DNA from: a virus
IMG/VR virus record: IMGVR_UViG_3300025689_000508
Span: 111-64,110 of that record
Length of the DNA: 64,000 nt
Reading direction: 5' to 3' (one strand)
The notes beneath the pieces are model-generated. The model did no database searches. It saw only the letters and a program-made list of their open reading frames with translations, and was not told where the DNA came from. A program made the position numbers and the translations under genes. The stretch's first letter is position 1, and the number at the start of each line of letters is the position of its first letter. Below are positions 1-16,385 of this stretch, piece after piece.

Positions 1-122
1 ATAAATTCATAAGTAACAACGGCTTCCGGAAAATCGTGGAAAACAACCTGCCCCATGTTGAACTTGTAGAGGTCATCGTCCAACATTGAGTCGAGTATAG
101 AATCTCTCAATTCGAGCTTCAT
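1..122 (-). CDS. pncB: Nicotinate phosphoribosyltransferase, N-terminal 40 aa only (runs off window; not in ORF track)
   Basis: Manual translation MKLELRDSILDSMLDDDLYKFNMGQVVFHDFPEAVVTYEF matches the PncB N-terminal signature S-L-L-D-x-D-L-Y-K-F-x-M; nicotinamidase nearby. Confidence 0.75.
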   Translation of the reverse strand, partial: MKLELRDSILDSMLDDDLYKFNMGQVVFHDFPEAVVTYEF

Positions 123-128
123 GTGAGC

Positions 129-156
129 ATTATACGGGTTTCCAAGAAGAAGTCAA
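129..156 (-). promoter_or_regulatory. Sigma70-like promoter (TTGACT-16-TATAAT), probably leaderless pncB mRNA
   Basis: Consensus boxes; -10 ends 6 nt before the ATG at 122. Confidence 0.7.
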
Positions 157-425
157 GCCATTAATTGGAGTCGGTCAGAAAGACGTTCCGAGGGAGGATG
201 ATTGACTTTTCGATACCGATTGCCCCACCAACGATTATTCCGAAACCAACGAGCAAAATCTTTCTTTTCAAGTTTTCGGCCAAGTCGCTTCTCAAAACAA
301 CCAATACAAATGACATCTCCCCATTTGCTTCGGGGGATTACAAGATGCCACAAACCTTTAAGCACATAAAAATCTTCCCCTTCGGCCCAAGGGCGACACC
401 GACAATCAGAACAACGCAAACTCAT
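153..425 (-). CDS. Hypothetical Cys-containing protein
   Basis: 90-aa ORF with CxxC...CxxC; start overlaps the kinase stop (ATGA). Confidence 0.55.
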   Translation of the reverse strand: MSLRCSDCRCRPWAEGEDFYVLKGLWHLVIPRSKWGDVICIGCFEKRLGRKLEKKDFARWFRNNRWWGNRYRKVNHPPSERLSDRLQLMA

Positions 426-2146
426 TTTCGTTTGATTTGGTGAATAGTGTTGCCGTTGATGAAATAAAAACCCTTCGGCGTTGCAAACAAAGGCATTGAT
501 GAGTCAAATGGTGGGTCGTCTAGAGTTTCGTATTGAGCCGCAGTCGAGAACAACTGGATTTGGTTGGGCGATGAAAGTAATAGACACAGCCCATTATCCA
601 AAACTGCAAAATTAATCGGGTCATATGCAATGTCCTCATCCACCCGTATATCCATGTTTTGATATTTTCGATCAAATACAACAACGTAGCGATTGTATTG
701 CCCCTTCTTCTCACCAACAATTATAGTAATGTTTTTGTCTGACTTGGCATCGATAATACGAACGTGGTCAAGTCCCGGCAAGTACTTGGAAAATGAGCGG
801 CCCAATGCATAAGGAATAGTCAGATACTTTTTCCCGAGTAAATCTTGAATAACGCAACCGGGATATATTTTAGCAGTTAGATTGGAAATATTCTCTACGG
901 TCTTTGGTCTATCAATCAATTTCGTTCCTATAGTGGTGAATGTATGCTCGATTAATGTTCCGTTAGTTACCGTATAAATTGCTCCGTTTCGCTCAAATAA
1001 ATCGTTACTACGGATACTTTCAATTTTGTCACCGCTATAGAGTTCGGCGAATTCCACGATATTTCCCATTCGAGTAGCTGTAATCATTGAACCGCCAGCT
1101 ACAGGACAGAATAGAACTTTCTTTGTATTATCGTTTAACCTGATTTTGTTGTTACCAGAATATAGCGCATCCTTAGTCACAACATAGTTAACTCCCATGA
1201 ACTGCTGAATAGAAATAATCGGTGAGCTACACGCTGCCACTTGACTTACCGTAAGCTTGTCTGTTCCAGTAATTGTGATAATTTGAGTCGGAACCAACAG
1301 AGGAACGGTAGAATCAGCAAATGGCGGTATGCTTCTATCACCTTTTTCGAAAACGAGCTTGAACCAGTCGAGATGTCGTTTCGGAATTACGTTGAAATCT
1401 TCAACCGTGGGAGGAACACGAACGTCTTTATGGAAGACACTAATGTTGTCATCCATTTGTTTATGTTTATCCTTTGGTTTGTAATTGGGATGAGTTCCCC
1501 TATATGGGTGAATGTTTGTGTACACCCAAAAAGATATGACAGCCCACGAGAACCAATCAGACAAAATAGTTGGATTGTAATGCATTTGTCCTTTCGAATC
1601 ATAGGTGGTCGCTTTCCTATCTCGAACGGAGTCCATGATAGCCGTTGCCTTGAATGAAGGAGTGGCGTAGCTGTCCGTATCAATAAACCATGGAGTAATG
1701 ATAGTCCCCAGATTAATAAGGATATTCAACTCATTGAAATCTACCACAAGACATTTAGCAGAATGAATGTTAGAGAGCGTTTGTTGTAGTTTCTTTACTA
1801 ATTCCGCAATCGCCTGTGGGCCTATATTGTTTGTATTTTTGTAAGCCCGATTAAATAGCTTCAATATCGGGTCCACATTATCTACAAACCGAGTAGTATA
1901 TCCTACTGGCTTACCAGTCTTGGCATCGTAAATGACATCTTGAGGCAGTACAACTTGAGGGTCGGTGATAAGAGACAACTCCTGCATCTTCTGAGGCGGG
2001 AGCATTTTCTGGTCCGGTTCATGGTAAAGTTTATATACCATGCCGTTTTTGGTATAGATCTCAGCTTCTCCACCAGCCGCAAGATATTCCTTATCGGTGA
2101 TAGTAACTTTGATTTTCTTTTGACCTATAACCAGTTCTTTTTTCAC
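422..2146 (-). CDS. Ser/Thr protein kinase-like protein (TerY-P-triad type) with beta-rich C-terminal region
   Basis: Gly loop AAGGEAEIY, VYKLY Lys, catalytic VVDFNELNIL, FIDTDSY (DFG equivalent); adjacent to PP2C and vWA. Confidence 0.8.
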   Translation of the reverse strand: MKKELVIGQKKIKVTITDKEYLAAGGEAEIYTKNGMVYKLYHEPDQKMLPPQKMQELSLITDPQVVLPQDVIYDAKTGKPVGYTTRFVDNVDPILKLFNRAYKNTNNIGPQAIAELVKKLQQTLSNIHSAKCLVVDFNELNILINLGTIITPWFIDTDSYATPSFKATAIMDSVRDRKATTYDSKGQMHYNPTILSDWFSWAVISFWVYTNIHPYRGTHPNYKPKDKHKQMDDNISVFHKDVRVPPTVEDFNVIPKRHLDWFKLVFEKGDRSIPPFADSTVPLLVPTQIITITGTDKLTVSQVAACSSPIISIQQFMGVNYVVTKDALYSGNNKIRLNDNTKKVLFCPVAGGSMITATRMGNIVEFAELYSGDKIESIRSNDLFERNGAIYTVTNGTLIEHTFTTIGTKLIDRPKTVENISNLTAKIYPGCVIQDLLGKKYLTIPYALGRSFSKYLPGLDHVRIIDAKSDKNITIIVGEKKGQYNRYVVVFDRKYQNMDIRVDEDIAYDPINFAVLDNGLCLLLSSPNQIQLFSTAAQYETLDDPPFDSSMPLFATPKGFYFINGNTIHQIKRK

Positions 2147-2946
2147 ACAATAATAGCCGACACAGAAATATCATCACTATGTGTCATACATTCTTTGACA
2201 CATTTCTTTTTGAATGCCGCTAGTCTTCTCTTGACGAAAATTCCCGTCGAACTCTTGAAACCAATGAATTCTTCGGCCAAATCCACCCAAAAAATCGAAG
2301 AGTTGTCGGCTCTTCTAAAACTCCCGATGCCATCTGAACAAACCGCCACGATGTCTCCCGGTTGTACGTTACGTGTGATGACAACGGGAGAAAATGGGGC
2401 TTGCTTTTCCATGGTTCTGATTTCCCTATCATAAACAGTAATCTCCTTGTATTCTTGGTCTGCCGATGAAGATTCAATATATTGCTGTTTTCGCTCAATA
2501 TCCAATGAGTATGACAGATAATCAGGTGCTCCACTCGTCAGTTCAATCTTCATCATATAAAGACCTTCTGGCGATTTATGAAAGAAAACACCATCTCCGT
2601 ACAGATATGCCTTGGCTATATTGTCTTTGACCCATGCCACGAGAAGGGTGGCATCCAGTGCTCGACTATTGAGCAATGGATATGTTAAGAAAAGGTTACT
2701 TGCTTTTCTGATTGTTTCTTCTCCAAACTTCTGGTAATCATGAACATAATCGGTTTGGAGAATTTCCCTTGCTGCCAAAGCCAACATTCTTGCTCCGATA
2801 TCGACATCTGGCGATGCCGAACAACCGTCACAAAGGATGGCGAAAGCATCGAAAGGAGAACATTCAAATAACTTTTTCCCTGCTATAGCATAGTCTTGAC
2901 AAACAAGATGGTCTTTGCCTATTTGGAAATCACAATCGGCATTCAT
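2143..2946 (-). CDS. PP2C-like protein phosphatase
   Basis: Motifs KDHLVCQD, LCDGCS, YGDG, CSDG, DDIS; start at 2946 inferred from ATGA overlap. Confidence 0.85.
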   Translation of the reverse strand: MNADCDFQIGKDHLVCQDYAIAGKKLFECSPFDAFAILCDGCSASPDVDIGARMLALAAREILQTDYVHDYQKFGEETIRKASNLFLTYPLLNSRALDATLLVAWVKDNIAKAYLYGDGVFFHKSPEGLYMMKIELTSGAPDYLSYSLDIERKQQYIESSSADQEYKEITVYDREIRTMEKQAPFSPVVITRNVQPGDIVAVCSDGIGSFRRADNSSIFWVDLAEEFIGFKSSTGIFVKRRLAAFKKKCVKECMTHSDDISVSAIIV

Positions 2947-3350
2947 GGCACAAGTTCCCACTTTTCGGAAACAAGTCCTCCATACATGTTTTTCGAACGA
3001 GTCACTTGAGCCTTTATTTCATTCTTATCGGCCAGATAGTTGAAAGTAGCTATATCTGTGAAACTTTTAACAACTTTCCCATCATAAGAAATATGCACAC
3101 TATTCTTATCATGGAGGACATTTACAATTACCGTTTCATTAACCTCTGATTGAGGCATTACACTCCCCAATGTCAACCATCCTAATAGGACGATAATAAG
3201 CAACATTGCCAAAGAAACACCCAACAGATCATCATTGTCTTTATAAAGTGCTACTCCTGCAAAAACAATGAAAAGTGCTGTGATACAAATGAGAATTACT
3301 AGTAACATACGTATAAATAATTCAAAGGGAAGAGTCGGTATAACCAGCAT
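2943..3350 (-). CDS. Membrane protein with two N-terminal TM helices
   Basis: Two hydrophobic stretches followed by a soluble domain. Confidence 0.6.
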   Translation of the reverse strand: MLVIPTLPFELFIRMLLVILICITALFIVFAGVALYKDNDDLLGVSLAMLLIIVLLGWLTLGSVMPQSEVNETVIVNVLHDKNSVHISYDGKVVKSFTDIATFNYLADKNEIKAQVTRSKNMYGGLVSEKWELVP

Positions 3351-3401
3351 TCATAATGTTGTTTTTCTAAACCGACATATAAATACATGGAAAAGTTGAT
3401 T

Positions 3402-4148
3402 TTAGAAGGAAAAGTTAAGAGGTTGGCTGGCTTTTCCAGTGCCCAATGCCGAACTTGTGCTTGAGATACTTTGGCTGATGAACTGGGCCAATTTGGCGAT
3501 TTTTCCGGGCGAAGCAGAACCTATGCTCACATAGGCATCGCATCCGGCGTTATCCTTGACATCCTTCAAATAGAAGTCAAGGTTCACATCGTCAGTAGTA
3601 ACGCCAACAAGAATGACGTTCAAAGACTCCAAACATTCAGCCTTGCGAGCATTTTCCAAGGACTTCTTGATTACGGCAGGATCGTGAATTGTTCCACGAT
3701 TATTCTGGCCGTCGGTAATCACAATCACGATACCATTGGCAGTGTAATCCTTTTGAGTGAGTTGCTTGCCATAGGTAGCTGTTGCTTGAATGGCTTCGTC
3801 CATTGCTTCAAACAATGCAGTCATGCCGCCGATTTGGAGAACGTTATCATAGTCCTTTTCTTGAATATTTTTCAAGAGCTTAAAACCATGAATCTCATAC
3901 AACTCATCATCGAAATGAACCACACGAAACATGAGATTGTCGGCACGAGGCGATTTTGCCATCGCTTTGAAAACCGTCTTCAAACATTGTTCCAATTGAA
4001 CAAGAAACTCGCTTACCGAACCACTAGTATCAATGACAACAGTTGCTAGTGTGTACTCCGCAGCTTCGAGGTCATCCATTTTAGTGGCACTGAACTTGTA
4101 TCCAGATGCCGCCTTAAGAGCTTCAAGATTTTTGCTAAGTAAACTCAT
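3402..4148 (-). CDS. vWA-domain protein (TerY-like)
   Basis: MIDAS DTSGSV, GGMTALFEA, ITDGQNN. Confidence 0.85.
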   Translation of the reverse strand: MSLLSKNLEALKAASGYKFSATKMDDLEAAEYTLATVVIDTSGSVSEFLVQLEQCLKTVFKAMAKSPRADNLMFRVVHFDDELYEIHGFKLLKNIQEKDYDNVLQIGGMTALFEAMDEAIQATATYGKQLTQKDYTANGIVIVITDGQNNRGTIHDPAVIKKSLENARKAECLESLNVILVGVTTDDVNLDFYLKDVKDNAGCDAYVSIGSASPGKIAKLAQFISQSISSTSSALGTGKASQPLNFSF

Positions 4149-4169
4149 TTGTTTTCCTTTTCTAAACGA

Positions 4170-4961
4170 TTACCAATCGACAGTTTTAGTAAGCCGCATA
4201 CCACGACCAACCATTTCTTTCACGAAATCCTGACCCAACTTTTCAAAGCCGGGAACGTTACTAGAAGTGTCTTCAAGCAACACGAACTTCTTGATGTTTT
4301 CATCACCGAAATTATTGGCAATATCTCGAATGGTATTGGCAACACAATGCGAAAGAGCTTCACCTGTGATAAGAATCTCATCGGCTTCCAAAAGCGTATC
4401 AATAAGAGCCGTATTGAGCTTTGTGGTGGGGTCCGAATCATCCGGCACGTCAGCCATAACACCGCTATAGTGCTCGGTAAGGAAGTTCGAGCCTTTAGTG
4501 ATGAAGTTCACTCGATTGATGGTCTTGGTTTCCCAAGCCACGAGAGCGTCTGCCACCAGCGGCGAAATGGAATGGCCACGTGTACCAATTAGACAATGCG
4601 GAGGCCAGATACAGAGGACATAACGTCCATTTTTCTTGAGTGTATCCACGTAGTGTTGAGCGTGCTGCTGCAAACCGGGGTGGAATGGACGCCACGTTCC
4701 ATTTCGAACATCGTCATCACTAATGAGAGTGAACGGTTTTGGGTTTTCACCCTTTGAATTCACCCAAAAAATTGGATGGGCAATGTGAATTACCTGATGG
4801 CTGTCAAGGGTACAGTGAATTTCACTGATTCGTTGTTGATTGGCATTGATAAACGCAGCCAATCGTTCCATGTCTTTATCGGCTCCGGTGACGAAGAGTG
4901 CTCCCTTCGGGTCACAGAAATCGACTTGAGGATCAATTGTGATGAGATGTGTTTTTTTCAT
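4170..4961 (-). CDS. pncA: Nicotinamidase (isochorismatase/cysteine hydrolase family)
   Basis: IDPQVDF, DSH, WPPHCLIGT, KG, GEALSHCV catalytic motifs. Confidence 0.85.
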   Translation of the reverse strand: MKKTHLITIDPQVDFCDPKGALFVTGADKDMERLAAFINANQQRISEIHCTLDSHQVIHIAHPIFWVNSKGENPKPFTLISDDDVRNGTWRPFHPGLQQHAQHYVDTLKKNGRYVLCIWPPHCLIGTRGHSISPLVADALVAWETKTINRVNFITKGSNFLTEHYSGVMADVPDDSDPTTKLNTALIDTLLEADEILITGEALSHCVANTIRDIANNFGDENIKKFVLLEDTSSNVPGFEKLGQDFVKEMVGRGMRLTKTVDW

Positions 4962-5004
4962 ATTATGTATTTTGTATCGGTTTCTATTTCGATTTTACAT
5001 GTGG

Positions 5005-5033
5005 ACTATACATTATTTCCACATAGAAGTCAA
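5005..5033 (-). promoter_or_regulatory. Sigma70-like promoter (TTGACT-17-TATAGT) for the pncA-vWA-PP2C-kinase unit
   Basis: Consensus boxes in the intergenic gap. Confidence 0.65.
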
Positions 5034-5042
5034 GAACTTATT

Positions 5043-6086
5043 TTACTGCTTTTGTGTCAAACGAAGTAATCTATTCCTCCAACTTAAAAGCATTGCGAAC
5101 AGAGAACGATGATTTGGAACAAACATGTCACCATTCAATGTATTAAGAGGAAGCCATTCAACATAGGCCAAATCATCGGAAGCTTTTAATTCGCCTTCCC
5201 AGACAGTTACCACATAAAATAGTGTCTTGATTTTATCTGGTAAATTGTGATAACGCCAGTCTTCAATTTTTCTTGAACCAATATATTCGAGTGACTTGCC
5301 AATGAGAGACGTTTCTTCCTTCAACTCACGAAGAGCGTCTTCTTCGTAACTGTTGCTGTTAACGTCGGCAAATCCACCGGGAAACCTCCAAAGAACTTCT
5401 CCCGGTTTCTTTCCCAAAAGCAGTATATCGTTTTTGAAATCAAAAACCGCAATATCCACCGTCGGATAACAAATAGGCCAACGATTTTGAGTAGCCCAAA
5501 CAACACCCTTTCGGAAATCCTCCGAATTAATAGAAACAAGACCAGTCTCTCGGCGAATCTTCGTAGAAGAAATATTGTGGGTCGGAATGATGACTTTCCT
5601 CTCATAGCGTCCAGAGTAGGGAAAACAGTCTCGGCTACCGTATAGCGTTACTGTCTGAGAAGGACCAGCCAAAAGAGCAATCTGATAATCCAAATTACGA
5701 CTCCACCGTTCAACATCTCCAACGTCATCGATTCTACAAATTTCAACGTTGGGATATTCAGTGTGAAGCATGTCAAACCGAATCTTGAAATCAAATGGAT
5801 CACGCTGATTACATTTCAGGGGGGATTGCCCAATAAAGACAAATACTCTTGCGTGCCGACTAAGGGCAAAATCAATCAGTTCCTTATATCCAGCGTGAAC
5901 ATAAGGCGATTGAAACCTCCCTACAATAACACCAATATCAGAGACTTTTGGTGCGGGTTGGAAAATAGGAGTGTCTGTTTCTGTATTTTCCTTAAGTTCA
6001 TTTGGACAATTACATCCGGGGTGATTTTGAGGAGTGTATGTTATCCCACAAAACGGACAATTCAATGTTGAATATTCGGCTGACAT
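5043..6086 (-). CDS. Bifunctional NMN/NaMN adenylyltransferase - Nudix (ADP-ribose pyrophosphatase), NadM-Nudix
   Basis: GRFQSPYVHAGY (HxGH variant), SSTKIR, Nudix box GGFADVNSNSYEEDALRELKEET. Confidence 0.85.
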   Translation of the reverse strand: MSAEYSTLNCPFCGITYTPQNHPGCNCPNELKENTETDTPIFQPAPKVSDIGVIVGRFQSPYVHAGYKELIDFALSRHARVFVFIGQSPLKCNQRDPFDFKIRFDMLHTEYPNVEICRIDDVGDVERWSRNLDYQIALLAGPSQTVTLYGSRDCFPYSGRYERKVIIPTHNISSTKIRRETGLVSINSEDFRKGVVWATQNRWPICYPTVDIAVFDFKNDILLLGKKPGEVLWRFPGGFADVNSNSYEEDALRELKEETSLIGKSLEYIGSRKIEDWRYHNLPDKIKTLFYVVTVWEGELKASDDLAYVEWLPLNTLNGDMFVPNHRSLFAMLLSWRNRLLRLTQKQ

Positions 6087-6128
6087 AATTAGATTTAGCA
6101 GTTGATTACATGTAATTATTCTACTTAT

Positions 6129-6581
6129 TCAAGAGACCGGCCCGCCACGAGATACCCATTTACCGTCACGAATTTCGACGTGAGAATAAGACTCAAGGGT
6201 ATCTTTCTTGGGTTCGGGGAGTTCGCCAGTTTCGGCGAAATGAATAAGGGCAGGAAGGAGCATTTTGACCATTTCTTGAGACAAATGCATCCTGCTAGGA
6301 ATCTCGATATCACAACCGGGAAGCAAATCATAAAGACACTTCTCCTGCGGACCAAACCCAAATTTGGCTTGTCCTTCATTTGGGTTAACAGGTTCACGAG
6401 GGAAAATTCTGATCATACCTTCCCGATTAAGGACACCAAGCCAGATACATTCATCGTTGGGACAAGTGGACACTATGGAACTCTTTTTGATAATACATCT
6501 TTCACCGTATTTATCTTCAAATTCGTCGTATGCGAACCCACTGAAATTTCGCTTGAATCTCATAATGTTCTCGTTGCTCAT
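6129..6581 (-). CDS. Hypothetical phage protein
   Basis: 150-aa ORF behind its own TTGACT-16-TATAAT promoter (6590..6617). Confidence 0.65.
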   Translation of the reverse strand: MSNENIMRFKRNFSGFAYDEFEDKYGERCIIKKSSIVSTCPNDECIWLGVLNREGMIRIFPREPVNPNEGQAKFGFGPQEKCLYDLLPGCDIEIPSRMHLSQEMVKMLLPALIHFAETGELPEPKKDTLESYSHVEIRDGKWVSRGGPVS

Positions 6582-6613
6582 CTTACAGCATTATACAGTT
6601 TTCCGACAAAAAG

Positions 6614-6991
6614 TCAAGTGGCAAAACGGTTTTGGATAATGCCATGATGTAGTGCATATTGCACCAGATGAGCCGGAATTTGAATGCCCAAGATTGTCCT
6701 CACATTGGCAAAATGAAATTCAACTGTTTTCGGGCTAATGTTTAATGTGTTGGCTATTTCTTTTATCGACATCCCTTCGGTGTAAAGCTTAAGAACGACT
6801 AGTTGTCGCTCCGTTAATGAGGTTTTCTTCGGCTTTTGAGCTTTTGCACAGGCGTTACAACATTTCTTACTCTCCAGATGCCATAATTGACATTTTGGGG
6901 AAAGTTTAGCTTTGCATCTTACAAGACGGTCCACTGGGCCGTCATATGGGACAGCTTCAATAGGGACGTTTCGATCATGCGATAGTTGCAT
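6614..6991 (-). CDS. LuxR/NarL-type HTH regulator with Cys-rich N-terminus
   Basis: SLTERQLVVLKLYTEGMSIKEIANTLNISPKTVEFHFANVRTILG is a LuxR C-terminal HTH. Confidence 0.85.
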   Translation of the reverse strand: MQLSHDRNVPIEAVPYDGPVDRLVRCKAKLSPKCQLWHLESKKCCNACAKAQKPKKTSLTERQLVVLKLYTEGMSIKEIANTLNISPKTVEFHFANVRTILGIQIPAHLVQYALHHGIIQNRFAT

Positions 6992-7026: not shown

Positions 7027-7075
7027 TGTCCATCCCGGAATATACCTAATAACGGAAAAAAGTCAAGCGGTTTCT

Positions 7076-7446: not shown

Positions 7447-8058
7447 TCAAGAAGGGGTAAAATAAGAACCTGTTTTGCCACGCTTGCCTTGATAGTTTGC
7501 GTTTATCGGATTATATCCAATCCATACGTCTTGGTCGTAGAATTTCTCAATGGCAGTTTTATAAAAAGGAATAGTTTCGGAATCCACTGGGCGAAAATGA
7601 TGAACATCCACTCCAACATTGAGCATATTCAGTTGGTATTTCCATGCAGCATGAACGTGGCCCACCAAATTAAACGCCTCTTCAATGCCTCTTGTAGGAT
7701 AATGAGTCAACCAACATGCAATATCACCAAAACAATATAGCCTTCCTTCTCCTTCTGGAACTATTTGCTCAAAATAAGGTGCCAATTGTTCATCGGTAAA
7801 CACTCGATCATGATTACCTCGGAATAAAATTTTCTTTCCGTTCATCTTAGCCACCCACGGAAGAAATTCCGGTGCTTTTTGATAACATACATCCCCTAGC
7901 ATAAGAACTCTATCATTACAATCAACAAGAGCGTTATGCTCGGCAATAATATGGTCAACCATATGAATTGGATCGCCGGAAAAGGGTCTTCCCATTAACT
8001 CAAACCGGTTTTCACCCAAATGCCAATCGGCGGTAAGCCACGTTTTCATGATTACCAT
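7447..8058 (-). CDS. Calcineurin-like metallophosphoesterase
   Basis: ADWHLG, LGDV, GNHD, THYP, GHVH motifs. Confidence 0.9.
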   Translation of the reverse strand: MVIMKTWLTADWHLGENRFELMGRPFSGDPIHMVDHIIAEHNALVDCNDRVLMLGDVCYQKAPEFLPWVAKMNGKKILFRGNHDRVFTDEQLAPYFEQIVPEGEGRLYCFGDIACWLTHYPTRGIEEAFNLVGHVHAAWKYQLNMLNVGVDVHHFRPVDSETIPFYKTAIEKFYDQDVWIGYNPINANYQGKRGKTGSYFTPS

Positions 8059-8918
8059 TTCAAAAAACCACCATAACTTTGGTCCACAATTGAGACCATT
8101 TCTGGGGGGAGACGCATTTTTGTTTCAGCCAGAATTCCAAGGTTAATACTTTCAACCCCATAATAGTGTTCAGCAATAGCTCCGGCAATTGCTGCGACTG
8201 TATCCGTGTCCCCCTTAGAATAAATCGAAAGACGAATGGCATCCTCGAAACTTGTTGATTCAAAAAAACAAATTAGAGCTTGAGGGACCGTTATATTGCA
8301 TCGAACATCTCTCTTGGACCACTCATTCCGAACAGTTTCAACGTCTGGGGTTAGGTCATATCCCGAAAGTTTCGATACGGTTTGTTGAATCTCGGCCTTG
8401 TCGTACCTGTCTCCTTTTTCGGTGCGATACCCCGCCATTATCATAGCAGTCACCGCCGCTAATGCGCCATTACGAGCCTCTTCGCAATTATGCGTCCACT
8501 CAGTACTATCGGAAACTTGTTTATAAGCCCATGCCAATTGGTCTTCAATTGTCATCGGAACCATATTACCTTCGTTGTTGACAAACTCTCGATTAAGAGC
8601 CCATAGAGCAATCGGACTGATACGCATAACCGCACCGTTACCCCGACTGTCATTCTTGTAATTTCCTCCTTTCTCGGCCCACTCAACAAAAGAAGAACCA
8701 TAACCAAGATTGGGATTTTTCTTGTACCACTCTATAAACTTCTCATGAAAGGGAACTCCCGTTAGAAGGGAATCGGCAACTGCGATAGTGAGATTGGTAT
8801 CGTCGGTAAACTTAGCTACCCCATACAAGAAAAATGGATGATAGTCACGTCTATCGACAGTGAGGCGGTCTCCTTCATAAGGTGAACCAGCGATATCTCC
8901 AATAATTGCTCCAATCAT
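8052..8918 (-). CDS. ADP-ribosylglycohydrolase (DraG/ARH family)
   Basis: GAIIGDIAG, FTDDT, GNGAVMRISP, GDTDTVAAIAGAIA. Confidence 0.92.
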   Translation of the reverse strand: MIGAIIGDIAGSPYEGDRLTVDRRDYHPFFLYGVAKFTDDTNLTIAVADSLLTGVPFHEKFIEWYKKNPNLGYGSSFVEWAEKGGNYKNDSRGNGAVMRISPIALWALNREFVNNEGNMVPMTIEDQLAWAYKQVSDSTEWTHNCEEARNGALAAVTAMIMAGYRTEKGDRYDKAEIQQTVSKLSGYDLTPDVETVRNEWSKRDVRCNITVPQALICFFESTSFEDAIRLSIYSKGDTDTVAAIAGAIAEHYYGVESINLGILAETKMRLPPEMVSIVDQSYGGFLKW

Positions 8919-9749: not shown

Positions 9750-10451
9750 TTACGATAAAGTCGCTCGTTGAGCCATTGTTTTTAGCATAAACATTATGGC
9801 ATACTTGAGGATACGCTTGTATGCTGTGGGGTTTCCTTTTTGAATCATTATTGTTTCTGGACTCATGAGACCATTTTGTTGGAGCCACTTGATAATCTGT
9901 TGTGGTTTAACCTTTTTGAGGTTTCTCTTTATCCATTCTATTTCCCCTCGTGCCAATGCCATCTGTTCCCATTTAATGTCATGATATGCCGTCGCTTTGT
10001 ACATTTTTCGAAGAGCCGGTGTGGCCATTCCCTTGTATTGTTTTTTCTGAATTTCAATATCTTGTTTGACGTGGACCCATTCGTGATAAATGCTTTCGGC
10101 AACACCATCCCAATCGATTTTTTGAATTCGTAACGGTCTAAAACGATTTGAAACATTATGGGCAAGATTAATAAATACCTCTTTTTGCCCATCACCTTCG
10201 AGAGATGGAATGTATCCTGCCTTAATACCATTATCAGGTTCGTAAATGAACCTCCAAAATACAGAGTTCAATTTATACTTAGGTGCGAGAACATCATTAG
10301 TGTGGTTTTTCAGTGCCGCACAGATAGCATTACTAGATGCGTTTTTGTAAAGATCGGAATGCCTCTTATAGAAACGTTCCAATGCTTTTACCATCGCATC
10401 AATTGCTTTTTCTTCTTGTGGCGGTATGTTGACGACACCTTCTAAGAGCAT
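9750..10451 (-). CDS. HExxH-containing protein (putative metallopeptidase-like)
   Basis: SIYHEWVH followed by a downstream WEQMA; start inferred just after a TATTTAT motif. Confidence 0.55.
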   Translation of the reverse strand: MLLEGVVNIPPQEEKAIDAMVKALERFYKRHSDLYKNASSNAICAALKNHTNDVLAPKYKLNSVFWRFIYEPDNGIKAGYIPSLEGDGQKEVFINLAHNVSNRFRPLRIQKIDWDGVAESIYHEWVHVKQDIEIQKKQYKGMATPALRKMYKATAYHDIKWEQMALARGEIEWIKRNLKKVKPQQIIKWLQQNGLMSPETIMIQKGNPTAYKRILKYAIMFMLKTMAQRATLS

Positions 10452-10517
10452 ACGTATAAATATGCCCATTAAGTCGGTTTTTGTCGCCTTTTTGATAAAA
10501 ATTTTGACCGATGAAGT

Positions 10518-10697
10518 TTATTCTTTCTCTTCGGCTTTCACTACACCGGACCACTCTTTGCAGTGTGAGCAGATACCGATTTGATTGAGGCGATCTCCAC
10601 AAATTTCTCCGTAAATGGGAGCACCACAGCATTCAGACAGAAACCGAGAATTAACTTCCAATTCATCGAATTCATTGAACTCTTCTATGTCTCTCAT
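10518..10697 (-). CDS. Small Cys-rich phage protein (59 aa, below ORF-track cutoff)
   Basis: Manual translation MRDIEEF...SECCGAPIYGE...GICSHCKEW. Confidence 0.6.
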   Translation of the reverse strand: MRDIEEFNEFDELEVNSRFLSECCGAPIYGEICGDRLNQIGICSHCKEWSGVVKAEEKE

Positions 10698-10757
10698 ACG
10701 TCTTTGTAATGTTTAATGAACTTATGAAAGTTTTATTCGTGTTCTTCCAATTCTGCT

Positions 10758-11096
10758 TTATAAAGCTGCCAACATTTCTTTAAGCTTTTTGCGAAGAGGT
10801 TGACGTTCCACTTTACCGTCCAAAGACCCATATTGGAGGTACTCATCAAGAACTTGAAGTATGGCATACATTTCTCGGTATTTTTCAGCGAAACGAGCGT
10901 TTGCTTGCATAGCGATAACTTCGTTTTTGGTTATACCTAAGTAGTTGTCATCTTCACCACACAACTCATCTGCCTTGGCCTTTGCCAGTTTCATCGCCTC
11001 GTCATCGAGTTCTCTTAAAGTTCTCATATCATCAATAATATCAATTCCAGTACAAAAGTCAAGCGGGAAGTTTCCTTCCCGCTTGATTCGCAGCAA
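10758..11096 (-). CDS. Hypothetical protein (true start probably internal, MRTLRE)
   Basis: ORF track; upstream part overlaps a TTGACT motif. Confidence 0.5.
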   Translation of the reverse strand: MLRIKREGNFPLDFCTGIDIIDDMRTLRELDDEAMKLAKAKADELCGEDDNYLGITKNEVIAMQANARFAEKYREMYAILQVLDEYLQYGSLDGKVERQPLRKKLKEMLAAL

Positions 11097-12075: not shown

Positions 12076-13362
12076 TTACTTTTTACATTCTAAAAGGTGA
12101 GTGATTTTGACCTGACTATTACGATAGACAACAAATTCGTCATTATACAAATCGGCCCCGCCTTTGGCGTAGATGGAGTCATAACCGGGATCGGCACCAT
12201 TAAGTTTCTGTTTGGTAACCTGTTGAATTCGACCCATAGCAAACTGACAGACAAACAACCAAGCCGCATCTCCCTTGCCGCCTTGACCCCAATGTCCAAT
12301 GCTATAATTCAGCGATTTGGTCGAAACATTAGCACCATAGATACCATTGCCAAACATCTTACCGGCAATCGCAGCAGTGCTTGGAGGGGAAGTTCGAAGA
12401 CCAGTTTTGAGAATGGAAAGTACATTTGCCTGAGACGTACCATGCCAAACTTCCCTAATAGGAATAGTCTTGGATTCGAAAGCTTCCGTCATAGCGTGAA
12501 TGTTAACCGTGTAAATCTGAACAACACGATATCGAAACGCATCTCTATGCATCGGTTTTTTTGAAGTTTCGAACCACCGATTGAGACGGTCGTACTCCGG
12601 ACCAGCGGCGAGAATATCCAAATCCACTTGGAAAACCTGCTCCATGGGAGGTTGATTCCCCGATGGAGTAGTAGGTTTCTGAGTCTGCAATGCCTGATAA
12701 GAGGCTTCCAAAGAGTCTAATACATCAGATTGCTTCTGAACGGCAGTAATGTCGGGAAAGATAGTGTTAACGTCAAATCGTTTCATTCCCACATTTTGAG
12801 GGACAATCCGCATATAACGATTAAACGCATCCCGTACTTTAGTTGAAGTATAATCTCGGCGAGACACACCTTGATTGATAACCATTAAAAGATTGCGAGC
12901 CTCAGTAATACCATCGGGGGTAACGATACCCAGAGGAGTGGAAAACAATCCCGTGCTGGAATTGAAAGTAATTTGGGTAGAAGACGTAATACGATGAACA
13001 TTGGCTTCCACCAAACGGTCAATAAGTCGATTTAAGGTCGGACTGCCAGATTTGGCAATTTGGGCTCGGGCGATTTGCTTTAATTCAGATTTTTCCACTA
13101 TTTTACCATGAGTCGTCACTGAGGAAGTGGGGCCTCCCACAGTCTTCAATTCAGTATAGCCCTTTCTGGCCTTTTCACGTTGCTTTTCAAGAAGGAAAGA
13201 TCTTCCGGCACCGGGAAACAATTTGGATTGACCAGAGTGACCGACACGGCCCCAAAGGGTTTCTACATCACCACTATCATAAAGTCTCCCGGTCCACCAA
13301 CGATTCATATTTGAATCTGCCTCAACGTTGATTAACCGAATTTCTTCAATGACGCTTGCCAT
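12076..13362 (-). CDS. WGR-domain poly(ADP-ribose) polymerase-like ADP-ribosyltransferase
   Basis: N-terminal WGRVG, helical middle domain, catalytic WHGT, GKMFGNGIYGA, KSLNY, YNDEFVVY (H-Y-E triad). Confidence 0.9.
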   Translation of the reverse strand: MASVIEEIRLINVEADSNMNRWWTGRLYDSGDVETLWGRVGHSGQSKLFPGAGRSFLLEKQREKARKGYTELKTVGGPTSSVTTHGKIVEKSELKQIARAQIAKSGSPTLNRLIDRLVEANVHRITSSTQITFNSSTGLFSTPLGIVTPDGITEARNLLMVINQGVSRRDYTSTKVRDAFNRYMRIVPQNVGMKRFDVNTIFPDITAVQKQSDVLDSLEASYQALQTQKPTTPSGNQPPMEQVFQVDLDILAAGPEYDRLNRWFETSKKPMHRDAFRYRVVQIYTVNIHAMTEAFESKTIPIREVWHGTSQANVLSILKTGLRTSPPSTAAIAGKMFGNGIYGANVSTKSLNYSIGHWGQGGKGDAAWLFVCQFAMGRIQQVTKQKLNGADPGYDSIYAKGGADLYNDEFVVYRNSQVKITHLLECKK

Positions 13363-13455: not shown

Positions 13456-13941
13456 TCAAGCCAAATACTTCAATGCGAAGTAATTGATGGTTAAGTGGAG
13501 GAAGTTGTCAATTACGATATAAATCCAAATGGTGATAAAGAAATGCCGAGGTTTGCCCCACCACTGAGGATAGACACGTTCAACATTATTCTGAATTTTC
13601 ATCCCATCAACTGCAAAAATATCCCTTTGAGCAGCCGTAGTATAAGGTGAATCGTCGTAGTGTCCTGTAGCATCACAATATTCATAGGGAGGATATTTTC
13701 CCGTGGGAAAGTGATTCTTTAACCAAATTAATCGCTTCAAAGGAGTATGAAATCGGTCAATAAAGAAATGCGTCACTCCGATAACCAACAATGCCTTCCA
13801 ACTTGTGGTAAGCAGAAGGAAACAGGAAGTATAAATAAGAACGTGAACGAGACAAGGAATGGTTCGTTTACTCTTGTTCAGTGCCATCCAGTCTGATTGA
13901 AGAACAAAGTCTCCTAATATATGAACTAAGAGTTGATTCAT
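13456..13941 (-). CDS. DUF3307-like membrane protein
   Basis: HILGDFVLQSDWMA...K, HVLIY, THFFID, DNFLH. Confidence 0.75.
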   Translation of the reverse strand: MNQLLVHILGDFVLQSDWMALNKSKRTIPCLVHVLIYTSCFLLLTTSWKALLVIGVTHFFIDRFHTPLKRLIWLKNHFPTGKYPPYEYCDATGHYDDSPYTTAAQRDIFAVDGMKIQNNVERVYPQWWGKPRHFFITIWIYIVIDNFLHLTINYFALKYLA

Positions 13942-15152
13942 AATATCCTTACATGTTTGATACCAAAGGCGTCTTTGAAATCAATTAAGGCTTGCTCGGC
14001 AGCGTAACCATAGCTTTCATCATTATGAATCGTCAAGATTTTTCCGTAATTATCCTTCTCAATAGCCTTGGAAATATGATAATGCTTTCGTTCATCACTA
14101 TATTGAGAGTGAATACGATGGGCAATTTGCTTGTCATTCAGGCCACGTCTTTTCAAACGCTCATACCGCAATTTGTCACTAGTTGTTACGAGAACAACAT
14201 TGTTATTGCAAATATGGGTCATTTTGAACTCAGCCAAAAGGGCGGCGTTAACTAAAATAATACCCTTGCGTCCTGCCAGAGAACGGCGAATGGCGGTCAT
14301 GAGGGGCTGATACATGATAGCATTCAGCTTCTCTCGTTTTCCAGCGTCAGCGAAGACTCGGTTTCCAAGTTCCACTCGCTCTTGTTCTGTAAGAATATCG
14401 GTCTCGCATTCCACCTGTCTCGATGAATCCAAAAAGAACGTATTGCGAATCGCTGCCCGAACTGCTTGATGGGCGGGAAGATTTACACTCTGAAACAGAA
14501 TAAATTGAGCCAATTTGTCAACGTCCAACTGTGAGACTTCTTCACTAGCCGACATCAGATGGTCACAATACCAATTTTTACCGGAGGCAATATTCCCAGT
14601 AACGCCGATAATTTGAACTCCATTCTTTACTTCAATGGCTCGCTTCACCCACAGCGGGACATATTCATGAATAAAACCAGCATGATTATACAATTCTTTC
14701 ACCGCCGTCGAGGAAATATGCGACAACTTTGGATCTCCACTAATAAAGTACGTTTCAATACCGTTCTGTTGCGAGACATTCACATCCCGTATTAGTTTCT
14801 CAAAATCATAGTCTGCCCAATTCCGAACACCCCGCACGATAGTATTAATATTGTAGTCAAAGGCCAAATCAGTGAGAAGCTTAGTTGAGTCTGATAAGGC
14901 AACCACGGTTATAATGGGATTTTTCAGATGGACGCCATTAACATTTGTGGGTCCAGAATTAACCACGAAAGGTCGCAGGGAATGTTGAACCATCTTCACC
15001 CGCTCCTCCAAAGTAAACATGTAATTCTTCGCCGGATTATTAGCCACAACCACCATCACATTAAACGTTTGGGTGGCTCGCTTGATAATGTCGATATGCC
15101 CGAAATGAATTGGGTCAAAACTTCCGGCGATAATTGCTCTAGCCTTTTCCAT
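13938..15152 (-). CDS. coaD: Fused phosphopantetheine adenylyltransferase (CoaD) - dephospho-CoA kinase (CoaE)
   Basis: AGSFDPIHFGH, IVRGVR, ISSTAVKEL; then IIGVTGNIASGK P-loop and CoaE-like lid. Confidence 0.85.
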   Translation of the reverse strand: MEKARAIIAGSFDPIHFGHIDIIKRATQTFNVMVVVANNPAKNYMFTLEERVKMVQHSLRPFVVNSGPTNVNGVHLKNPIITVVALSDSTKLLTDLAFDYNINTIVRGVRNWADYDFEKLIRDVNVSQQNGIETYFISGDPKLSHISSTAVKELYNHAGFIHEYVPLWVKRAIEVKNGVQIIGVTGNIASGKNWYCDHLMSASEEVSQLDVDKLAQFILFQSVNLPAHQAVRAAIRNTFFLDSSRQVECETDILTEQERVELGNRVFADAGKREKLNAIMYQPLMTAIRRSLAGRKGIILVNAALLAEFKMTHICNNNVVLVTTSDKLRYERLKRRGLNDKQIAHRIHSQYSDERKHYHISKAIEKDNYGKILTIHNDESYGYAAEQALIDFKDAFGIKHVRIL

Positions 15153-15921
15153 ACTTTTCCATTACTTCTTTGATTGAATCCTTCCAAGCAACCTTGGGGT
15201 GGTCTTTCAACTTATCAATCAACCACAAGATATTTTCATCGGATTGCATGGCAATGATTCTATCACATTTTTCTTTGACAATAGCATCAGTCTTGACAAC
15301 TCTACTGTCAACCTTATTCATCTTACCAATCCAAATCTTGTCGGTGACGTGGAAAGACATTCTATCAAACAATTCCAATGTCTCTTCTACCGTGCCTAAC
15401 ATTGGTTCCATGCTGACGCTCGTGGCAAATCCCTCTTTGTATGCCCAAAATAAACAAGCCAATCTTTCTTTAATAGAGGGGGCTCCCGGTTCCCAAAACT
15501 TAGCGGTATCTTCGTCAGATGTTCCAATGGTAAATCGAAACAAAATTTGCCCTCTCCAGAATGCCAATGTTTCACACAAAGCCTTGATACATTCCAAATG
15601 AGGTTTAGATACAATTAAAACGTTATTACCATTGGCCAACAATTTGGTTAACGTTTCGATGGCGGGAACTAAATAGAAAGGAGTAATGTCATGGGTTGTC
15701 GGGAACATGACCCACCCCTTTTTCTTATCAGTGGCAGGAAACTGAGTTTTCAACTTCTCGGAGGTCCATTCGGTATCCGATTTGATTTTACCGTCTCGTT
15801 TGGCTATGGACCTTGCATAGCAATATCTGCAACCATGAGAACAACCAGTTCCAATATTATAGCTGAATTCGGCCCATTCTCTTGTTCCTGTCTTTCTCTT
15901 GTTCACGGTTCGTACCTGCAA
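15139..15921 (-). CDS. Radical SAM protein (spore photoproduct lyase/DUF5131-like)
   Basis: GCSHGCRYCYA CxxxCxxC; SMEPM. Confidence 0.75.
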   Translation of the reverse strand: MQVRTVNKRKTGTREWAEFSYNIGTGCSHGCRYCYARSIAKRDGKIKSDTEWTSEKLKTQFPATDKKKGWVMFPTTHDITPFYLVPAIETLTKLLANGNNVLIVSKPHLECIKALCETLAFWRGQILFRFTIGTSDEDTAKFWEPGAPSIKERLACLFWAYKEGFATSVSMEPMLGTVEETLELFDRMSFHVTDKIWIGKMNKVDSRVVKTDAIVKEKCDRIIAMQSDENILWLIDKLKDHPKVAWKDSIKEVMEKYGKG

Positions 15922-16385
15922 ATGTAAAGGTCAAGGTCGGTTTCGTCTTTGAAAATCGTATCGATAATTGCTCGCACAATTCGCCAGTCACCACCTCCCA
16001 ATGTACAACCCATATTATATGGTAGGCCCAATTTTGTCAAGCCTTTCGATATGGCATGATTCTTAACCCTTTCAAGTCCTTCAACCATAGGATCATACAA
16101 GGTTTGTCGTCCATGACCAAAAGTATATTGACTGTAGAGATTGTAAATTAATTTTCCGGGATATTTCTTTGCCTCAGCATAAGTGAATGTACCCAATTTA
16201 CTTCGGTCCCCATACGCAGAATTTCGCTTGTCTGCCTCATACGTCTCTGGAAATGTATCCCGAATCTGTTTGGCGATACCTGCTCCGAAAGTATGAAAAC
16301 AGTTTGCTTGGTGGACAATTCCCGAAGGAGTTTCCTGTTCAACAAGCCATGTGAGCAAATTCTGATTTTCCAAACTATAAATCAT
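15903..16385 (-). CDS. Macrodomain (ADP-ribose binding/hydrolase, Poa1p/T4 Tk.4-like)
   Basis: IVHQANCFHTFGAGIAKQI, NLYSQY, PYNMGCTLGGGDW. Confidence 0.9.
   Translation of the reverse strand: MIYSLENQNLLTWLVEQETPSGIVHQANCFHTFGAGIAKQIRDTFPETYEADKRNSAYGDRSKLGTFTYAEAKKYPGKLIYNLYSQYTFGHGRQTLYDPMVEGLERVKNHAISKGLTKLGLPYNMGCTLGGGDWRIVRAIIDTIFKDETDLDLYICRYEP

Follow-up and report, generated by a model that had tools for sequence, protein, structure and literature searches.

We analyzed a stretch of 64,000 nucleotides of viral DNA (hereafter the window), which spans bases 111-64110 of the single linear 64,716-base IMG/VR virus record IMGVR_UViG_3300025689_000508, and focused on the array of genes at its left end, whose content points to the recycling of nicotinamide adenine dinucleotide (NAD) and ADP-ribose. 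Its genes include rIIA, rIIB, an ATP-dependent ligase, thymidylate synthase and a primase-helicase, which mark the record as part of a huge-phage genome; CheckV completeness is 18%, so that absences from this contig speak for about 18% of the genome and do not cover the remainder. Near-identical DNA was found in activated-sludge and anaerobic-digester metagenomes; in GenBank, the closest relatives are uncultured phages with genomes of 460-735 kb, and megablast of window positions 1-6200 against GenBank phages gave no match. From position 6086 down to position 1, all genes are encoded on the minus strand, separated by short gaps or overlapping slightly, in the following order:

5043..6086, minus strand: NadM-Nudix fusion (PF01467 and PF00293, with structure-family matches)
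4170..4961, minus strand: PncA/Pnc1-type nicotinamidase of 263 amino acids (aa), predicted from motifs, fold and invariant residues
3402..4148, minus strand: von Willebrand A (vWA) protein with MIDAS motif (DTSGS...T...D; PF00092, E=9.4e-10)
2943..3350, minus strand: 135-aa open reading frame (ORF) with a long hydrophobic N-terminal part, by its sequence probably two membrane-spanning helices
2143..2961, minus strand: PP2C-type protein phosphatase (PF13672, E=6e-7, above the cut-off)
422..2146, minus strand: protein-kinase-like protein of 574 aa, with an N-terminal kinase core and a C-terminal part of ~300 aa without recognized fold
153..425, minus strand: Cys-rich 90-aa ORF (CxxC...CxxC), no function assigned (phrog_6053, E=2.6e-8)
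3..122, minus strand: 5' part of pncB, PncB-type nicotinate phosphoribosyltransferase (NF003704, and PF17767 at E=2.7e-12 on 77 aa)

An earlier note on this DNA had identified the nicotinamidase, the NadM-Nudix fusion and the start of a nicotinate phosphoribosyltransferase at the window edge, and had read them as a deamidating route for rebuilding NAD; it left out the five co-oriented genes between pncA and pncB (vWA, membrane protein, PP2C, kinase and Cys-rich ORF). The three identifications hold up, on the evidence given for each below.

By its motifs, its invariant residues and its modeled fold, the ORF at 4170..4961 is predicted to be a nicotinamidase, and its sequence places it in a divergent, longer sub-family of these enzymes, exceeding the solved ones by ~50-80 aa. 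It scores 20.2 bits against PF00857 (E=6.7e-4, cut-off 27) and 37.7 bits against the NCBIfam PncA model NF008623 (cut-off 174). The motifs IDPQVDF, WPPHC, TKG and ALSHC are all found, and every functional motif lines up with its counterpart in Pnc1 of yeast and PncA of M. tuberculosis, the catalytic triad D10/K156/C206 falling on the equivalent positions of both enzymes and the metal-site residues D53/H55/H122 (H122 in WPPHC) on the DWH and WPVHC of Pnc1; triad and metal-site residues alike are invariant across 20 phage homologues. A metal site of this kind (Asp, His, His) separates nicotinamidases from other isochorismatase-like hydrolases. An AlphaFold (AF2) model of the protein (pLDDT 94.5) returned only nicotinamidases among its 20 best Foldseek PDB matches (E 2e-15 to 8e-9, led by 2wta, 3v8e, 1ilw, 3r2j and 3pl1), with TM-scores normalized to target length of 0.74-0.81 except for the long chain 9u8m at 0.51, and with other isochorismatase-like hydrolases ranking below them. 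The sub-family is very abundant, with >5,000 database relatives, many of them labeled nicotinamidase by JGI. One related huge phage (L026) carries two diverged nicotinamidase-like copies ~5 kb apart (10001-10774 and 15475-16368), the second with large insertions.

The fusion at 5043..6086 carries PF01467 (cytidylyltransferase-like) at residues 54-179 followed by PF00293 (Nudix) at 208-331, and its best solved relatives are the bifunctional enzymes of Francisella and Synechocystis, both halves aligning to 2qjt and 2qjo and Francisella NadM being the best solved match. Against the NadM-Nudix equivalog model it reaches at best 58.2 bits (cut-off 397). The first nucleotidyltransferase motif reads GRFQSPYVHAGY, with HAGY for (H/T)xGH and a loop two residues longer. 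Among related loci, which were collected through PncA and are designated here by L numbers, L043 and L045 also have the Tyr (HEGY) while remoter relatives have HxGH or TDGH, so HxGY is a conserved sub-clade variant and not a private lesion. The second motif, ISSTKIRR, is intact, and the Nudix core RELKEET is present and of ADP-ribose type, with Ser for the Gly after EE and, in our own alignment, Asn for the first Glu of the box. In some relatives the two domains are separate genes or one of them is missing (L007 and L010 have only NMNAT, L012 only Nudix), and an IMG/VR search for related loci with NadM-Nudix itself found nothing. Residues 1-47 (window 5946-6086) form a Cys-rich N-terminal extension (CPFCG...CNCP), seen in L043 as well and absent from most relatives, which is possibly a zinc ribbon.

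At the left edge, the pncB reading frame has 40 codons in the window and 77 in the contig, running to the contig end 110 bases left of window base 1. These 77 codons match positions 7-71 of NF003704 (E=7e-17) and TIGR01514 (E=1.8e-15) with no Nampt model listed, and they are thus assigned by sequence to the start of a PncB-type and not a Nampt-type enzyme. Similarity to PncB ends at codon 69, outside the window at contig bases 26-28, and the last 25 bases of the contig (…GATAGCTCTTAC|TTCAACGTCTCGGAGAATTGGACAA) copy the 3' end of an unrelated HAD-like gene. The PF04095 catalytic domain (with FGTRRR) was not found on the contig; the full pncB for which the earlier note suggested looking to the left of the window is thus not confirmed, and neither nadE nor a PRPP (phosphoribosyl pyrophosphate) synthetase, the other genes to be looked for there, is present on the contig. 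A circular join of the contig ends was considered and rejected: continued into the opposite end, the pncB frame meets a stop within a few codons, and the contig lacks a terminal repeat.

We found the same break in other assemblies of this phage. A lookup of the exact PncA protein returned eight contigs, 99.98-99.99% identical over 11-15 kb, and a sequence-pattern search added one further contig. The window's own contig and five 99.99%-identical contigs all diverge after ...GATAGCTCTTAC, the five showing three different deletion junctions at an identical left point, and three of the five also lack the stretch that holds nadE in relatives. The continuations are as follows:

Form A (L038, L040): a stop codon, then PncB from ~residue 185 in another frame, with residues 70-184 including FGTRRR missing
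Form D (L049): the junction enters the HAD-like gene near codon 14
Form B (L037, from a 157.8-kb contig, and L039): as Form D, plus the 25-base patch
The window's own contig: the 25-base patch, then the contig end

In the relative L043, the HAD-like gene lies ~3.2 kb downstream, so Form D has lost nadE together with the remainder of pncB, a gene of 112 aa and four others. The junction sites (contig bases 1-30; L037:15042-15070 and 15400-15429; L049:62-110) thus give at least four different continuations after codon 69 in phages otherwise 99.99% identical; TTAC/TAC microhomology is seen at some of the joints, and all the deletions share their left end. Forms A and D come from one sample, a coexistence that accounts for assemblies breaking at codon 69.

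It is conceivable that pncB-nadE is complete in the actual phage, the truncations being minority variants or assembly products at a strain-variable site, in which case the full deamidating route would hold here. Several assemblies do break at this point (the window's own contig, L038 and L040), and a 29-30-base repeat lies at the junction. The C-terminal PncB half in Form A is also well kept, at 69% identity to that of L012, and a Logan contig from another sludge run (X3) reads on past codon 69 for 35 bases (ACT CCC GGA GAG TTT CTT…, or T-PGEFLFLTGI) in frame and with residues that fit PncB (compare YPESNFLRSIPGI in P0123), so that an intact allele probably exists in some populations. Set against this, L037, L039 and L049 extend through the junction and >3 kb beyond it without the PncB catalytic part, the junctions were obtained repeatedly, from at least four samples and with three assembly pipelines, and the window's own contig has foreign bases after codon 69; moreover, no intact PncB with this N-terminus occurs among the 120 best relatives of the L043 PncB. 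The continuation KERDGTVSL (X4/L049) was tried as an in-frame internal deletion of pncB and rejected, being the 5' part of the HAD-like gene in another frame (L049), and a search of IMG/VR with the junction pattern gave no match, in a set that may omit near-identical records. We therefore consider a complete pncB-nadE in this phage decidedly improbable and, judging from the assembled sequences, take pncB to be disrupted after codon 69. On the earlier note's own terms, this truncation counts as refuting a usable PncB in this genome.

The relatives present a different picture. In the nearest lineages with a different PncA sequence (L043/L044, 95% identical, and L045, 88%), the array runs on one strand as NadM-Nudix, PncA, vWA, small ORF, PP2C, kinase, (orf90), PncB and NadE; PncB and NadE are 379 and 272 aa long in L043/L044 and 387 and 256 aa long in L045. 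A homologue of the Cys-rich 90-aa ORF precedes pncB in L012, L043 and L045, and an ORF of a size similar to the 135-aa membrane ORF stands at the equivalent place in L043 and L045. We also checked five related huge phages, four of them ≥91% complete: exactly one PF04095 gene was found in 5/5 and in each case it is PncB, which leaves none for a Nampt; NadE is found in 4/5, directly beside pncB in two; and PRPP synthetase (Prs) in 3/5, within ~1.3 kb of pncB in two. This group of phages thus has a real and recurrent deamidating gene set, and the route claimed by the earlier note stands for the group, where PncB and NadE are part of the arrays, but not for this genome, with its disrupted pncB and with the nadE stretch deleted in three of five contigs. 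Such loss is not unique to this phage, as L047 (PncA 81% identical) also has no pncB or nadE within the ~3 kb of its contig past the kinase. L047 additionally has a DUF723 gene inserted between PP2C and kinase (L047:13222-14163).

The relatives also bear on the order in which the steps might run. The best solved match of a relative's NadE is 3FIU (1e-30, against 7.7e-24 for the next best), the Francisella NadE that acts as a nicotinamide mononucleotide (NMN) synthetase (PMC12143786), and no NadD is found in these phage arrays. Enzymes of the NadM family use NMN well and some also use nicotinate mononucleotide (NaMN); Francisella NadM pairs with a NadE acting as NMN synthetase, whereas Acinetobacter and archaeal NadM works with an ordinary NAD synthetase (PMC3376133). 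Taken together, these matches hint, and no more, at the order NaMN to NMN to NAD. NadE is a single domain of ~260 aa in L043, L045 and L012, while in L016 (G001:156334-157257) and G004:92292-93134 the NAD synthase domain sits in an open frame of 700 or 695 aa, probably a two-domain form.

The same gene contents speak to whether the phage might do without deamidation altogether, with NadM-Nudix adenylylating NMN supplied by a Nampt elsewhere, in phage or host, as in NARP2, and with PncA an unrelated housekeeping enzyme. NARP2 (Nampt plus Nmnat, e.g., NadV and the NadM-Nudix-type NatV of KVP40) resembles the present array in having a phage NMNAT-Nudix fusion and in recycling nicotinamide to NAD, and characterized NadM-Nudix enzymes are efficient with NMN (PMC3376133) and are frequently partnered with NadV; 82% of the genome is also unseen. 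It differs in that nicotinamide would here be deamidated first, requiring PncB and amidation by NadE, and no Nampt is found, the contig giving no PF04095 match. Since the five related huge phages have no second PF04095 gene besides PncB, the edge ORF is itself of PncB type, and PncA would destroy the substrate of Nampt, we regard such a non-deamidating use as very improbable.

Upstream of the NAD genes and on the same strand lie genes for ADP-ribose metabolism:

8052..8918, minus strand: ADP-ribosylglycohydrolase (ARH; PF03747, E=1.4e-31)
12076..13362, minus strand: WGR-PARP (PF00644, E=7.7e-28, with PARP_reg and WGR)
13938..15152, minus strand: CoaD-CoaE fusion, between PARP and macrodomain
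15903..16385, minus strand: macrodomain (PF01661, E=3.7e-6)

The PARP, ARH and macrodomain genes fall within 12 kb. The earlier note had named the phage's own PARP as a possible consumer of NAD, and this part agrees with the WGR-PARP nearby in the window and with PARP genes in 4/5 of the related huge phages, in three of which (G001, G002 and G004) they lie within ~10 kb of the NAD genes; the deamidating route that would make good the consumed NAD is, however, incomplete here. The phage PARP would release nicotinamide and the action of ARH and macrodomain would yield ADP-ribose, which would supply the substrates of PncA and of the Nudix domain. The CoaD-CoaE fusion was considered as a hidden NadD and rejected, as its N-terminal half scores 127.6 bits against the CoaD equivalog cut-off of 103.3.

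With these gene identities, this truncation and this synteny in relatives as observed, we favor, with moderate confidence, the reading that the stretch is a partly decayed copy of a NAD/ADP-ribose recycling island that recurs in huge phages. The enzyme specificities, step order and biological role of a complete island are what we infer from its genes: PncA would deamidate nicotinamide released by the phage WGR-PARP or by host NADases, and PncB would convert the product with PRPP to NaMN. NaMN would then be amidated to NMN by the Francisella-like NadE and adenylylated by NadM, or, alternatively, NadM would act on it first, with amidation by NadE as the last step, and the Nudix half of NadM would split ADP-ribose into AMP and ribose-5-phosphate. 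As only PncA and NadM-Nudix are intact here and most assembled variants have lost the nadE stretch, the route would have to borrow PncB and NadE/NadD from the host, and with the pathway broken in this phage the genome cannot serve as evidence for a working route. Several observations weigh against reading the locus as a decayed recycling island: PncA and NadM-Nudix both score far below their curated-model cut-offs, Tyr replaces the second His in the first motif of NadM, and, given the share of the genome at hand, pncB, nadE or a Nampt may lie elsewhere, to which the probable intact allele in other populations adds. The remaining such observation is that the vWA-PP2C-kinase triad accompanies PncA more constantly than PncB or NadM does.

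Counted over 21 non-redundant related loci, a vWA gene lies directly beside pncA in 19/21 and a kinase is among its neighbors in 19/21, with PP2C in 18/21, compared with 8/21 for PncB (within 10 kb), 8/21 for an NMNAT domain, 7/21 for a Nudix domain and ~8/21 for NadE. In the window, the triad and the small membrane ORF span 422-4148. In the kinase, the Gly-loop, the Lys, the catalytic Asp/Asn and the DFG-like Asp are all preserved, with G25-G26 (Gly-loop), K39, E56, D136/N141 and D156 near-invariant in 14 homologues; its atlas neighbors, mostly viral, carry Pkinase, and it shows a weak match to a LanL kinase region. The MIDAS motif of the vWA protein is complete. A vWA protein, a PP2C phosphatase and a Ser/Thr kinase also make up the TerY-P defense/signaling triad (Anantharaman et al. 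2012 and Gao et al. 2020, cited in PMC10542128), and the present locus shows this architecture, with the same three domain types in one co-oriented array. It differs in the C-terminal part of the kinase and in being phage-borne and joined to a nicotinamidase, and none of the three proteins matches the PADLOC TerY-P models at E<=1e-3.

These counts support a competing view, in which PncA is the enzymatic arm of a PncA-vWA-PP2C-kinase module and does not serve mainly in NAD resynthesis, the NAD genes being optional neighbors. PncA would then clear away nicotinamide, which inhibits PARP, sirtuin-like and other NAD-cleaving enzymes as their product, and phosphorylation might control this removal. 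Besides the neighbor counts, the intact kinase, MIDAS and PP2C motifs and the phage's own PARP nearby agree with it, as does the retention of pncA, triad and nadM, letter for letter, in eight contigs of this lineage while pncB and nadE are deleted; a lineage that keeps pncA and loses pncB strengthens the case for nicotinamide removal independent of PncB. Conversely, in L012 and L027, which have no triad, pncA abuts pncB and nadE, so that PncA belongs to two overlapping neighborhoods, the triad and the salvage genes. Most triad-only genomes were surveyed near pncA, and in LR756511 pncB lies 30 kb from pncA. In the literature searched, we found no description of a link between PncA and such a triad, nor a precedent for a kinase-regulated nicotinamidase. 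On balance we consider the module view possible but unlikely and retain the decayed recycling island as the better account, while the constant pairing of nicotinamidase and triad may point to regulated control of nicotinamide.

Phage-encoded rebuilding of NAD is a current topic in counter-defense research, and three such pathways have been demonstrated at the bench, none of them via nicotinate. NARP1 (Adps and Namat) and NARP2 have been described without mention of PncA, PncB or NadE, and NARP3 consists of PnuC and NadR (PMC13464706). NARP1 and NARP3 share with the present genes the rebuilding of NAD by the phage and differ in substrates, using ADPR-PP and nicotinamide (NARP1) or nicotinamide riboside (NARP3). 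The incomplete contig gave no match to PF13793 (Prs-like), our proxy for Adps, in a search that did not include Namat itself, and none to PF04973 for PnuC, in one that did not include NadR itself. Because NARP3 already holds that place, the "third" route proposed by the earlier note cannot be so called, and Preiss-Handler clusters (pncB-nadD-nadE) and pncA had been reported from the sequences of jumbo phages in 2024 (PMC11662467). We thus regard the observation made in that note as partly confirmed and its interpretation as partly supported, with its novelty overstated.

The 2024 study, in Microbiome, found by annotation alone that gut jumbo phages carry complete salvage or Preiss-Handler sets, e.g., pncB-nadD-nadE, and it also mentions phage pncA (PMC11662467). 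These "NAD-jumbo phages" resemble the phages described here in being huge and in clustering pncB, nadE, nadM and pncA with NAD-consuming enzymes, and a counter-defense role is only a proposal there too (PMC11662467). The present array differs in having NadM-Nudix rather than NadD, PncA within the array, the triad between pncA and pncB, and a pncB that is truncated in this genome. The route of Francisella tularensis, from PncB through the NMN synthetase NadE* to NadM-Nudix (Sorci et al. 2009, cited in PMC3376133), uses the same enzyme set without NadD, and the phage NadM and a relative's NadE match the Francisella proteins best; the phage differs in adding PncA, in its low identity (~20-30% by eye) and in the absence of nadE from this contig. 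In the literature searched, we came across no experimental test of a deamidating route in phages, and no description of NadM/NadE pairing in them. The relatives offer a compact gene set for such a route (NadM-Nudix, PncA, PncB, NadE and, in some, Prs), which would allow one to ask whether NadM and a Francisella-like NadE run the steps in an unusual order.

A bolder reading, which we hold to be rather unlikely, would make of these genes a fourth NAD reconstitution pathway, deamidating and Francisella-like, running from PncA through PncB and a NadE acting as NMN synthetase to NadM, with Nudix and often Prs returning the carbon of ADP-ribose. PncA would here be wired to the vWA-PP2C-kinase switch, a phosphorylation signal turning on both nicotinamide removal and NAD rebuilding, and the deletions at codon 69 would reflect selection against phage PncB/NadE in some hosts.

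Lastly, promoter-like sequences were found on the minus strand, among them the following:

129..156, minus strand: promoter-like site TTGACT-16-TATAAT just upstream of pncB, with the same 11/12 match at 6590-6617

The total count of such sites is no higher than expected by chance, so the site before pncB is a lead only. Together with those at 6590-6617, 7039-7066 and 5005-5033, which precede orf150, a LuxR-type gene and pncA, respectively, it follows a TTGACT-16/17-TATAAT-like pattern that may represent a host-type early promoter class.

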